A DNA stretch of 64,000 bases from a virus. Its lineage: Duplodnaviria > Heunggongvirae > Uroviricota > Caudoviricetes. The notes beneath the pieces are model-generated. The model was not told the origin of the DNA. It did not search any database and was given only the letters and a program-made list of their open reading frames with translations. The translations under genes were made by a program, and so were the position numbers. The DNA lies in IMG/VR virus record IMGVR_UViG_3300012347_000482, positions 53,051 through 117,050 of that record; one strand, 5' to 3'. Position 1 is the first letter of the stretch. The number at the start of each line of letters is the position of its first letter. Positions 2,820 through 62,736 of the stretch are shown in pieces.

Positions 2820-3290
2820 ATGAGAATTTACGAAATAATTAACGAAGATTATACTCTAGAAGAGGGGTGGAAAGAAACGTTAATATCTGCAGGTATGGCC
2901 GGATTGTTTGCTATCACTGCATTAACTGGTGCCCCTCCTGCGCAAGCCGCCGAAGGTCCTGCAAAGTCAACACCGGAAGCTGTTAAATTAGTCAAACAGT
3001 CCGAGACTGCACAAGGTGTTCGAATTAAACAGTTTTCCGACGGTAGCCACACAGAAAGTGACGGGGGCGGAATGCGAGTGTATGATGCTAGCGGTACATT
3101 GATCAAAACTGTTTCTCCAAGTGTTGGCGGTGTTCAAGTAGCTACTGATCATGCAACTGGTGATGTTACTACTACTTACAGTGCCGGTCCCATGACTGCT
3201 AGTCGAACTGTTAATAAAGCTGGTCAACAAGTTAGTGCAAATTCCAATGCATCAGTCGGTGCTACTAACTTCTCTGCTAAAGCTCCATAA
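2820..3290 (+). CDS. hypothetical protein with capsid-targeting-like N-terminus (MRIYEIINE) and a hydrophobic segment
   Basis: AAGGAATAATTTATG ribosome-binding site; N-term MRIYEIINEDYTLEEGW then a transmembrane/signal-like segment LISAGMAGLFAITALTGAPPAQA; Thr/Ser/Gly-rich C-term. Confidence 0.6.
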   Translation: MRIYEIINEDYTLEEGWKETLISAGMAGLFAITALTGAPPAQAAEGPAKSTPEAVKLVKQSETAQGVRIKQFSDGSHTESDGGGMRVYDASGTLIKTVSPSVGGVQVATDHATGDVTTTYSAGPMTASRTVNKAGQQVSANSNASVGATNFSAKAP

Positions 3291-3296
3291 CATCTA

Positions 3297-3569
3297 CTAA
3301 GTCGACGCTATCACATCAAAAATAGTACCATAGTAATACTTGGTATACTCGTCATGATCAACATACGTATTGGCCACAGCACGATAAATTCTTGTGCGCC
3401 AATGCCTATTTCCGTGTACGTCAGTTACTGGATGCCATGCATACCATTCCTCCCACCGTCGGCCCTTAATTACTTGATATTTGTTTCTTGTGGGAGTGAG
3501 ATATACCCAAAGCATCCCTACAAACTGTAGGGCAATAATACCAAATGCTCCTAGATACCAATCTAGCAT
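3297..3569 (-). CDS. small protein, paralog family member 1 of 4 (N-terminal transmembrane segment)
   Basis: C-terminal YYYGTIFDVI matches EYGTIFDLIKNEE / EFGTLFDVLK of the three downstream paralogs. Confidence 0.45.
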   Translation of the reverse strand: MLDWYLGAFGIIALQFVGMLWVYLTPTRNKYQVIKGRRWEEWYAWHPVTDVHGNRHWRTRIYRAVANTYVDHDEYTKYYYGTIFDVIAST

Positions 3570-3778
3570 GGTTCCTCCTCATTTTTTATAAGGTCAAAGA
3601 TCGTACTATACTCAAATATTTCTCGAAGATCTCCGTCTTCGAAATGATCTCCGCGGTCGATAATAATAATAACCCGTCGACGATACACAGTTTTAAGCCA
3701 AACTAATTGACCTAATACTTTTTTCGGAAACCAAATAAACTTTGCTTGCCATTTTCCTTTATACTCACATTGATTCAT
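3563..3778 (-). CDS. small protein, paralog family member 2 of 4
   Basis: MNQCEYKGKWQAKFIWFPKKVLGQLVWLKTVYRRR...; shares the WFPKKVLG.LVWLKTVYRRR core with 3819..4016. Confidence 0.5.
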   Translation of the reverse strand: MNQCEYKGKWQAKFIWFPKKVLGQLVWLKTVYRRRVIIIIDRGDHFEDGDLREIFEYSTIFDLIKNEEEPC

Positions 3779-3818
3779 AAGTGATTGCCCATTAATACGA
3801 ATCTGGGAAAACTAACTT

Positions 3819-4016
3819 CTAGCATGGTCCCTCCTCATTTTTTATAAGATCAAAAATCGTACCATACTCAACGGTATCTCGAAGAAATCCGTCTTCAAGA
3901 AGAATAAAAGCACGCCGACGATACACAGTTTTAAGCCAAACTAATCGACCTAATACTTTTTTCGGAAACCAAATAAACTCTGCTTCCCATGCTCCTTGAT
4001 ACAAGTATTGACCCAT
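3819..4016 (-). CDS. small protein, paralog family member 3 of 4
   Basis: MGQYLYQGAWEAEFIWFPKKVLGRLVWLKTVYRRR...EYGTIFDLIKNEEGPC. Confidence 0.5.
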   Translation of the reverse strand: MGQYLYQGAWEAEFIWFPKKVLGRLVWLKTVYRRRAFILLEDGFLRDTVEYGTIFDLIKNEEGPC

Positions 4017-61986: not shown

Positions 61987-61998
61987 AGAGCTGTAAGT

Positions 61999-62025
61999 TA
62001 TGAGTCTCCTGTTAGGAGACTCATA
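61999..62025. terminator. hairpin terminator between convergent genes (1 of 2)
   Basis: TATGAGTCTCC-TGTTA-GGAGACTCATA (11-bp stem). Confidence 0.65.
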
Positions 62026-62033
62026 TAAAATAC

Positions 62034-62059
62034 CTATTTCTTATCCAATATAAGAAATA
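62034..62059. terminator. hairpin terminator between convergent genes (2 of 2)
   Basis: CTATTTCTTAT-CCAA-ATAAGAAATAG (11-bp stem) overlapping the stop of the minus-strand gene. Confidence 0.55.
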
Positions 62060-62736
62060 GGATCAACAAACACAATTTGTGGTCCTACGCTTGTTAATCG
62101 AATCATTGCATTATCGGGATTGTCTAAATCGGGCTCAGCATTATTTGATGCAACATCCATAAGATGGACTAACTCATCTGCTTGTGGGTTAGTACCTGGA
62201 TGGTCGTATGCGGTGTTAATAACTCCGTATATAATGTCTAACCATACAAGCTTTTTATTATGTTGATGATATTTGCGGGTTCTTAATTCTGTAAATAGCT
62301 CATCAGTAGCACCTGGCACTTCTTTTAAATATAATGCGTGTAGCGTTTTATACGACACTTCGGTGTAGTTAACTAACTTTTCCAATTGATACCTAGGTTT
62401 AATTTGGTTATTTAAATCAGTTTTTTTATCAATAACACGAACTCGTGGTAAGTATGGATTTGATTTTGAGTAAGGTGCAATTGTTGTAACCCACGCATAA
62501 TATCCATCATAGTAGTCGCTGTGTGGATCGTCCCCATCAAAACTGCGTTTAGTTGTTTTATACACTTCGTGTGGATTTCTTGGTGTTGGTTTAACTACTC
62601 CAAAAAATCCAGAATTTGATGGAGGTTTATAAGCGTTTACGTCATTGTCATCGTCGTCAGGTACAGTGGGGGATTTATGAATTGATGGGAATTTAGTATC
62701 TCTAAATACAGTATCGACAATTTCAGTTATTCGCAT
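62041..62736 (-). CDS. hypothetical protein with capsid-targeting-like N-terminus (MRITEIVDT)
   Basis: ATG 62736 with AGGAACTATTATG ribosome-binding site; the ORF-track start at 62766 is TTG. Confidence 0.5.
   Translation of the reverse strand: MRITEIVDTVFRDTKFPSIHKSPTVPDDDDNDVNAYKPPSNSGFFGVVKPTPRNPHEVYKTTKRSFDGDDPHSDYYDGYYAWVTTIAPYSKSNPYLPRVRVIDKKTDLNNQIKPRYQLEKLVNYTEVSYKTLHALYLKEVPGATDELFTELRTRKYHQHNKKLVWLDIIYGVINTAYDHPGTNPQADELVHLMDVASNNAEPDLDNPDNAMIRLTSVGPQIVFVDPISYIG

Follow-up and report, generated by a model that had tools for sequence, protein, structure and literature searches.

The subject of this study is a nine-residue N-terminal sequence, here called the tag (consensus MRAREFIxE), that recurs on the predicted proteins of a 64-kb stretch of phage DNA (hereafter the window; 36-40% guanine plus cytosine, GC) from the IMG/VR record IMGVR_UViG_3300012347_000482. 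The window contains 15 clear and about 10 variant genes for tagged, putative cargo proteins, including a tandem array of ten paralogues. An earlier, sequence-only reading had compared the tag with the capsid-targeting sequence (CTS) of phage T4 internal proteins, and both of its points on T4 agree with the literature: the T4 CTS is MKTYQEFIAE (PMC8442874), and the prohead protease gp21 cleaves after L/I-x-E, the first 10 residues of the internal protein IPIII being sufficient for encapsidation (PMC9026906). Within these residues, positions 4 and 7 act in targeting and positions 8 and 10 in processing, and Asp10 blocks cutting, not targeting (PMC9026906).

A tandem array of ten tagged paralogues

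The array consists of the following genes, listed with subfamily, N-terminus and length in amino acids (aa); the boxes are promoter-like sequences discussed further below, with positions relative to the start codon.

8854..10245, plus strand: subfamily A, MRAREFIIE, 463 aa; residues 36-235 match EST35_0205 of the Pseudomonas phage PA5oct; CATAAATA at -27
10902..12407, plus strand: subfamily B, MRAREFIFE, 501 aa
12435..13631, plus strand: subfamily A, MRAREFIIE, 398 aa; absent from the 95%-identical relative L083
14097..15281, plus strand: subfamily C, MRIYEVITE, 394 aa; differing N-terminal domain, common C-terminal repeats; TATAAATA at -27
15309..17009, plus strand: subfamily A, MRAREFIVE, 566 aa; absent from L083
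17215..19428, plus strand: subfamily B, MRAREFIVESFIVES, 737 aa; four GYF_2 domains at the end
19513..21078, plus strand: subfamily A, MRAREFIVE, 521 aa; near-identical protein P0005 on a 261-kb ENA contig
21106..22263, plus strand: subfamily A, MRAREFIIE, 385 aa
22273..23994, plus strand: subfamily B, GTG start, (M)RAREFIFE, 573 aa
24057..25271, plus strand: subfamily B, MRLIELLRE, 404 aa; compare T4 gp24, MAKINELLRE

After removal of the first 12 residues, BLAST sorts these proteins into groups A (8854, 12435, 15309, 19513, 21106), B (10902, 17215, 22273, 24057) and C (14097), and only C-terminal 26-residue repeats are common to all three. According to AlphaFold2 modelling, the array proteins comprise an α/β domain with an invariant Trp-Cys, followed by an α-solenoid of these repeats (AYxYAxxVIKGRWPEAE), the number of which varies between paralogues; a Pfam match to HTH_35 falls on the repeats and is probably spurious. 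The model of the 8854 product (g8854) has a predicted local distance difference test score of 95, with residues 1-7 below 50 and the first helix starting at residue 12, and since residues 1-7 are predicted to be disordered and to lie outside the fold, the tag would form an exposed appendage. When 49 array-family sequences are aligned, no more than five columns are invariant, and Glu9 is among them. At the start of g17215, MRAREFIVESFIVES (17215-17260), five residues are duplicated in tandem, so that the predicted cleavage site occurs twice.

Successive array genes are joined by a junction of ~85 nucleotides (nt) that comprises the C-terminal codons (...FGTNLAQR), the stop codon, a promoter box, the ribosome-binding site and the tag (e.g., 12340-12460, 15215-15335 and 21010-21130), and the tag codons together with ~55 nt upstream are nearly identical among the paralogues. 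A related ENA contig (261 kb), ~95% identical across the array, lacks the window genes 12435-14010 and 15309-17009. The conserved junction and the absence of two cassettes from a ~95%-identical relative thus indicate that whole cassettes are gained or lost between near-identical genomes, and this loss fits unequal crossing-over at the junctions.

Tagged genes outside the array

Five further genes carry a clear tag:

2820..3290, plus strand: MRIYEIINE, 156 aa; transmembrane-like hydrophobic segment after the tag
7724..7966, plus strand: MKIFEVIQE, 80 aa, basic (isoelectric point, pI, 10.2); TTAAATA box 26 nt upstream
25341..26444, plus strand: MKIREIITE, 367 aa, muralytic protein of family GH19 (Pfam Glyco_hydro_19, 2e-13; PHROG endolysin, 1.8e-41)
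31050..31322, minus strand: MRVHEFITE, 90 aa, basic (pI 10.1); alternative ATG 6 nt upstream
45613..46302, plus strand: MRIEEIVTE, 229 aa, small and basic; two shuffled modules

The remaining candidates have weak or variant tags:

13633..14010, plus strand: candidate MRLSQLFEN, 125 aa, start uncertain; ATG one base past the stop of the preceding gene
27015..28154, plus strand: MSISKLIIEA, 379 aa, L-I-I-E at residues 6-9; paralogue of 28172; lacks R/K2 and E5 and is therefore a candidate only
28172..29128, plus strand: MSISKLIIEA, 318 aa; paralogue of 27015
29125..30498, minus strand: weak variant MRLYDLNHPNPLNE, 457 aa, Amidoligase_2; relatives start MRYREFELTE or MRLKEFKLTE
42935..43303, plus strand: weak, MRAAEIMRK (no Glu9), 122 aa, acidic
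44670..45095, plus strand: MTYRKYINIVE, 141 aa; relatives (MRELITLIE, MRQYIKLVE, MRDLLNILE) have a hydrophobic-x-E that ends at residue 9
45092..45613, plus strand: MRKYIDLVE, 173 aa, Pterin_4a domain; L-V-E at residues 7-9, no Glu5
48439..50037, plus strand: extended variant MEQHQFRKLINLIES, 532 aa; TATAAATA at -57
56117..56494, plus strand: weak, MRFFEFAGD (Asp9), 125 aa
62041..62736, minus strand: weak, MRITEIVDT (no Glu9), 231 aa; GATAAATA at -28

Six database homologues of 2820, which has no Pfam or PHROG match, keep M[RK]I[YH]EIINE with E5, I6, I7, N8 and E9 invariant; a relative of 7724 in L019 starts MRLDEVLTQE, and one of 31322 in L143, beside a head module, starts MRASEFITE. The GH19 protein had already been singled out in the sequence-only reading as a lysin-like member of the set. 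Its relatives, found in many architectures at 10 or more loci, have canonical starts such as MRASEFITE and MRVTEFIAE, and because tagged GH19 proteins recur in this manner, the comparison argues for 25341 being a virion-borne wall hydrolase and not a soluble endolysin. g45613 consists of a basic KWVRFGPDGKIRGDC module and one of ~130 aa, and protein segments with 60-90% identity to them are found in 1564 representative clusters of widely differing architecture (113-1495 aa), at many internal positions in proteins of up to 1495 aa; the pair is extremely mobile and unannotated. Among the best 150 of these 1564 clusters, themselves of widely differing architecture, 76 start with the tag, whatever domain comes first.

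Among the weaker candidates, 13633 shows weak similarity to 25341 and has no obvious ribosome-binding site, while the relatives of 42935 keep M[KQ]I[AS][DE]ILRKLADI and one of them has MRAREFIRE. BLAST and phmmer relatives of 48439 start MRLHEILKE (L011) and MRAYEFIVE (L018), and its own N-terminus resembles that of the acidic head-core protein of relatives, MDQKKFEKLIDLIINE. No homologues of 56117 were found among the related loci compared. The canonical tag is found on none of the recognisable replication or metabolism enzymes of the window (ligase, ribonucleotide reductase, ClpP, RNA ligase, phosphoesterase), and the Pterin_4a protein g45092 is the only metabolic-type protein with a variant form.

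All N-termini cited in the sequence-only reading are present where it placed them. It had listed 19 open reading frames (ORFs), 15 of which fit the motif well (the ten array genes, 2820, 7724, 25341, 31322 and 45613) and four weakly (42935, 45092, 56117 and 62736), so that its estimate of ~20 members holds only when weak and variant tags are included. It had overlooked the variants 13633, 27015, 28172, 44670, 48439 and 29125c, in many of whose relatives a canonical tag is present or residue 9 closes a hydrophobic-x-Glu.

Position specificity of the tag

Six-frame translation of the window yields 13 matches to a strict core of the tag, [RK]xxE[FIL][IVLM]xE, all 13 directly after a start codon, at most 10 codons from an upstream stop, and none at an internal position; for a loose form, M[RK]xx[ED][FILVM][IVLMA], 17 of 18 matches begin at the initiator Met. 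In a crude set of 81 genes, the strict tag heads 12 products and the loose tag 17, where the internal rate would predict 0.004 and 0.084, respectively. A compositional artefact, in which the motif would be equally frequent inside proteins, is ruled out by the lack of internal strict matches and by the N-terminal excess. Applied to 40 kb from T4 and 123 kb from PA5oct, the same scan that gave 19 matches in the 64 kb of the window returned none and 2, respectively.

Again with the first 12 residues removed, the products of 2820, 7724, 25341, 31322c and 45613 are unrelated by BLAST to the array and to one another, in agreement with the earlier statement that unrelated proteins bear the motif. As 2820, 25341, 31322c, 45613 and the array are mutually unrelated, at least five independent families carry the strict tag, compared to 0.004 expected (P ~1e-14, by our own Poisson estimate and not as the output of a tool). 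Codon usage varies among unrelated genes (AGA/CGA/AAA, TTT/ATA/ATT/GTT/CTT/ATC and GAA/GAG), so the claim that conservation lies at the protein level stands between families; within the array, where tag codons and upstream DNA are shared, part of it reflects descent. A [ILVMF]-x-E is found at residues 7-9 of 15 window proteins and fails in 42935, 56117 and 62736. Taken together, the tag pattern is real and far beyond chance.

The tag in related metagenomic phages

A profile scan of IMG/VR gave 80 related loci (1.2 Mb), in which we found 169 N-terminally tagged ORFs in 66 BLAST clusters, as compared to 22 internal occurrences of the motif at a Met. With no motif preselected, R2 (3.3-fold), E5 (2.7-fold), F6 (3.2-fold) and E9 (2.3-fold) are enriched at the N-termini of 1361 ORFs, and in 160 unique tags Glu9 is present in 111 (69%) and Ala3 in 51%, neither residue being part of the selection pattern. 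Of 120 homologues of g8854, 52 start with the tag and many more with near variants.

A degenerate DNA pattern for MRAREFIxE retrieved at least 119 IMG/VR stretches. Most of the matches listed correspond to two small proteins of ~123 and ~128 aa, encoded in a structural module syntenic with the region of PA5oct that runs from the tail tube to head completion. Both members of this adjacent pair start with MRAREFIxE (L187 8848-9602, L199 234-988, L201 7229-7989 and ~75 further IMG/VR loci; 44-46% GC), which makes them the commonest exact-tag carriers among the IMG/VR matches listed; they have no match in cultured phages (tblastn, for the 128-aa family). Judged by these comparisons, the tag is portable and clade-wide, the same tag being found on mutually unrelated cargo proteins.

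Head module, prohead protease and PA5oct virion proteins

At L003, L004, L013, L014, L074/L075 and L024, array-family and other tagged genes adjoin the head module, which in these relatives follows the order portal, small core protein, acidic protein, Peptidase_S77 protease, scaffold and Gp23 capsid protein, with the array family directly downstream; L078 has protease, scaffold and capsid genes and no portal match. The protease matches Pfam Peptidase_S77 (1.5e-26) and the capsid protein Gp23 (6.6e-98), and gp152 of PA5oct also belongs to S77. Over 152 residues, the protease of L004 shares 34% identity with T4 gp21 (E 2e-19) and conserves LGE(L/V)(N/D)HP and GVSSRG, which we take to hold the catalytic His and Ser of gp21. 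In the capsid precursors of the relatives, the Gp23 domain is preceded by LLE, ILE and LLKE sites, which is consistent with a retained L/I-x-E specificity of the protease. ClpP, the sole protease encoded in the window, was considered for the processing role and rejected, as it is a full-length, cellular-type CLP_protease and PA5oct has ClpP besides its S77 enzyme.

PA5oct also provides data on virion proteins. The array homologue EST35_0205, which starts MKLFEVF, is annotated as a structural protein detected by electrospray tandem mass spectrometry (ESI-MS/MS), and so is EST35_0150, a 73-aa protein starting MKINDIITE that is encoded between portal and protease, the position of T4 genes 67/68. 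Overall, PA5oct has 3 tagged ORFs in 123 kb, 2 of them MS-positive; with so few tags, it offers no test of whether a tag implies presence in the virion.

Boxes resembling late promoters

Most array ATGs are preceded, 26-27 nt upstream, by a CATAAATA or TATAAATA box, with AAGGRA ribosome-binding sites in between, and TATAAATA is the consensus of T4 late promoters.

8827-8834, 10876-10883, 12408-12415, 14070-14077, 15282-15289, 17188-17195, 21079-21086 and 24031-24038, plus strand: CATAAATA/TATAAATA boxes before array start codons

Similar boxes lie upstream of 48439, 54951 and 57293, and the octamer YATAAATA is not enriched window-wide. Judged by their sequence and spacing, the boxes suggest gp55-type late transcription.

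Gene content and lineage of the window

The gene content is that of a large T4/PA5oct-related myovirus: the window encodes an ATP-dependent DNA ligase, an RnlA-like RNA ligase, a phosphoesterase, tail-fibre-like proteins, a tailspike-like protein and a ribonucleotide-reductase-like ORF, the last recognised from its N-terminal sequence only, and PA5oct, a Pseudomonas jumbo phage, carries the auxiliary set ClpP, ClpX, ClpS, ligase and ribonucleotide reductase. Two segments of the window had no megablast match among 50,697 phage records, a single-protein scan of IMG/VR revealed no close relative, and tblastn of phage records with an array protein matched only PA5oct-like phages and SCTP-2. Further features of the window are:

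3563-3778, 3819-4016 and 4037-4237, minus strand: three small tandem paralogues, 65-71 aa, untagged, with a W/F-rich motif (…FIWFPKKVLG…)
6413-6489, minus strand: tRNA-Arg(TCT), anticodon UCU
6560-6636, minus strand: tRNA-Met(CAT)
10364-10513, plus strand: Rfam RF01718 (Polynucleobacter-1 RNA), full-length match, 89 bits against a gathering score of 37
26474-27013, plus strand: AlgH-like DUF179 protein
36824..37444, plus strand: cellular-type ClpP (Pfam CLP_protease, 1.6e-64, full length), outside the tag system
38179-40443 and 40400-42703, plus strand: two large paralogous tail-fibre-like proteins, 754 and 767 aa, both matching phrog_22899 and tail-fibre PHROGs; the ORFs overlap by ~40 nt

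Genes of cellular type stand among the cargo genes, namely those for the AlgH-like DUF179 protein, the Amidoligase_2 protein, the protein with a pterin-4a-carbinolamine-dehydratase domain and the full-length ClpP. AGA, the codon read by tRNA-Arg(UCU), encodes Arg2 and Arg4 of the tag in the array genes; the phage could thereby supply a tRNA for its own tag, or this could equally reflect ordinary AT-rich codon usage. The RF01718 RNA lies inside the cargo array, in a 650-nt gap between its first two genes that is 98.9% identical in L083. Its presence hints at a freshwater setting and possibly at a Polynucleobacter host, a link based on where the motif was first found.

A probable capsid-targeting propeptide

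We consider it likely that M-[RK]-x-x-[ED]-[FIL]-[ILV]-x-E is a capsid-targeting propeptide of the T4 type, which an S77 prohead protease removes by cutting after Glu9 and which is reused on an unusually large, modular set of proteins. Tagged genes would be expressed late; the exposed tag would bind the scaffolding core of the assembling prohead, so that the attached protein becomes enclosed by the Gp23-type shell; and the gp21-like Peptidase_S77 protease would then cut after Glu9, with hydrophobic residue 7 as P3 and Glu9 as P1, freeing the mature protein inside the head. Part of the cargo, for example the small basic proteins and the GH19 hydrolase of the cell wall, would probably be ejected with the DNA. 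We infer core binding, cleavage, packaging and ejection, the last above all, and the capsid-packaged reading proposed at the outset draws its support from the likeness to the T4 CTS, from PA5oct mass spectrometry and from the head module of relatives.

Several observations weigh against this reading. Because the window has no S77 protease, portal, capsid or other head gene, its only protease being ClpP, the link between tag and head is drawn from relatives, and the nearest of these with a head module are ~40% identical in the array protein. The third tagged ORF of PA5oct, EST35_0271, was not detected by mass spectrometry, and since the list of detected proteins includes ribonucleotide reductase, thymidylate synthase and other enzymes that are obviously non-structural, we treat it as supportive of presence in virion preparations, not of location in the head or of cleavage. 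The excess of boxes resembling T4 late promoters before tagged genes (15 of 21, against 17 of 55 others; Fisher P 0.002), in itself a point in favour, counts paralogues as independent, and the tag and upstream DNA shared across the array stem partly from duplication. Compared to the T4 CTS, the window tag is one residue shorter and has no clear counterpart of the targeting Tyr4. A basic charge as in T4 internal proteins was considered as a common property of the cargo and not found: pI values range from 4.1 to 10.2, with g7724, g31322c and g45613 being small and basic like the T4 proteins. The size of the cargo, up to 737 aa, raises the question of capsid capacity.

The tag might instead be a cleaved propeptide with no role in targeting, removed by the prohead protease or another one to activate or release, for example, the GH19 hydrolase, with head entry governed by other parts of the protein. 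The strongly conserved positions that map to known biochemistry are indeed only those of cleavage, hydrophobic 7 and Glu9, and T4 gp23, gp24 and gp22 are cut at L/I-x-E without a portable signal peptide. However, positions 2, 5 and 6 (R/K, E and F) are as conserved as the cleavage site, which a bare L/I-x-E would not need, and the same nine residues head more than 60 unrelated cargo families and shuffled architectures, as a self-sufficient module would; moreover, since gp21-type proteases act inside the prohead, their substrates must already be there. We thus regard this explanation as unlikely. Still less probable is another N-terminal function, be it a degradation or recognition signal for the phage Clp system or a signal for membrane or other localisation, for which one might invoke the full-length ClpP at 36824-37444, the conservation of Clp components in PA5oct, the transmembrane-like segment of g2820 and the metabolic Pterin_4a domain on a tagged protein. 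In PA5oct, however, a complete Clp set goes with no more than ~3 tags in 123 kb; tagged genes are concentrated in modules for head and structural proteins and downstream of late-type promoters, and the motif fits S77 specificity and the T4 CTS; we know of no Clp degron of this form.

Selection at the nucleotide level is, in our estimate, the least probable of the alternatives. An A-rich, unstructured 5' region (ATG AGA GCA AGA GAA TTT AT...) could favour initiation at strongly expressed late genes, or the pattern could have arisen as a side effect when a 5' cassette was duplicated or underwent gene conversion, and the near-identical tag codons and ~55 nt upstream in the array, as well as a phage tRNA-Arg(UCU) that reads AGA, would suit such an origin. 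Against this, codons for the same residues vary among unrelated genes, the protein motif is retained in more than 60 clusters and at a GC content of 44-46% as well as of 37%, Glu9 and Phe6 have no obvious rationale in RNA, and no internal occurrences were found. All these rivals are therefore less likely than a capsid-targeting propeptide, in view of how well residues 2, 5 and 6 are conserved, of the genomic context and of the variation in codons.

A bolder extension is conceivable, though we offer it tentatively and with more doubt than belief: the tag may be a clade-wide, modular address label for cargo loading in abundant uncultured, probably freshwater, T4/PA5oct-related jumbo phages. Hundreds of families, including fast-turnover α-solenoid arrays, shuffled multi-module proteins and wall hydrolases, would be packaged and ejected as an arsenal for host takeover and anti-defence, an order of magnitude beyond that of T4, and the promoter, ribosome-binding site and tag would together act as a recombination landing pad through which cargo genes are captured and swapped. 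Should the tag work as in T4, nine residues recognised in the sequence would be enough to enumerate the proteins that a widespread phage clade without close relatives in culture packages and possibly injects. As T4 internal proteins include the anti-restriction factor IPI*, the tagged set would then also single out candidates for anti-defence and host takeover. The repertoire may grow as cassettes behind a fixed promoter-tag module are duplicated, lost and shuffled, and the tag could serve as a second natural tag for protein-delivery engineering.

Comparison with known systems

Searchable literature on CTS-like tags in jumbo phages yielded nothing beyond the work on T4 and on phiKZ/SPN3US, nor did we find there a description of an expanded tag family of such scale, which is absence of evidence only. 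The inner-body and ejection proteins of phiKZ (protease gp175) and SPN3US (protease gp245) also belong to giant phages, in which many proteins packaged in the head are processed by a gp21-related protease cutting after Glu. The cleavage motif there is S/A/G-x-E and there is no shared short consensus, whereas the tag described here has 9 aa and a bulky hydrophobic P3 and occurs in a T4/PA5oct-related lineage with a Gp23 capsid. A long propeptide of the phiKZ/SPN3US type was considered for the window proteins and set aside in view of the 9-aa tag, the hydrophobic P3 and the Gp23 and S77 head genes of the lineage; to our knowledge, only such long propeptides have been described so far in giant phages, and the present reading, if true, would extend the T4 CTS principle to PA5oct-related giant phages. 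The propeptides of phiKZ and SPN3US are mostly 80-130 residues long (PMC5694885).

Capsid-carried enzymes and effectors that are delivered with the DNA are also represented by T7 gp16, P22 gp7/16/20, P1 Dar and the so-called polyvalent proteins, and the tagged GH19 and g45613-like proteins fit the same concept. The ejection proteins of T7, P22 and P1 differ in their loading mechanisms and are not known to have an N-terminal 9-mer in common.

The closest likeness is to T4 itself. Compared by eye as 9- and 10-mers, the tag and the T4 CTS share the core EF[IL]xE and align as M-[KR]-x-x-(x)-E-F-I-x-E with a one-residue gap, such that Phe6, Ile7 and Glu9 of the tag fall on Phe7, Ile8 and Glu10 of T4. 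Both are peptides of ~10 residues at the extreme N-terminus, with a gp21-type hydrophobic-x-Glu end, on unrelated proteins that look non-essential, and here too the genes may be expressed late and relatives have a Peptidase_S77 protease and a Gp23-type capsid. The two differ in the preference for Arg over Lys at position 2 and in scale, with ~15-25 putative cargo genes in 64 kb of the window, whereas the whole of T4 has three internal proteins (plus Alt). The predicted cargo reaches 737 aa, is not uniformly basic and includes a ten-gene tandem array and multi-module shuffled proteins.

Other leaders of T4 head proteins (gp24, Alt, gp22, gp67, gp68 and gp21, the last with LIE-9) are likewise short and end in L/I-x-E; in the T4 record, gp24 starts MAKINELLRE, which is nearly matched by MRLIELLRE of g24057, and Alt starts MELITE. 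Small portal-adjacent proteins of relatives and of PA5oct (MKSKELLVE and MKINDIITE) occupy the position of T4 genes 67/68. The leaders of T4 differ from each other, whereas one consensus is reused on dozens of families here, so that what the window and its relatives present would be a greatly expanded T4 CTS/gp21 system in a distant clade of jumbo phages and not a new mechanism.

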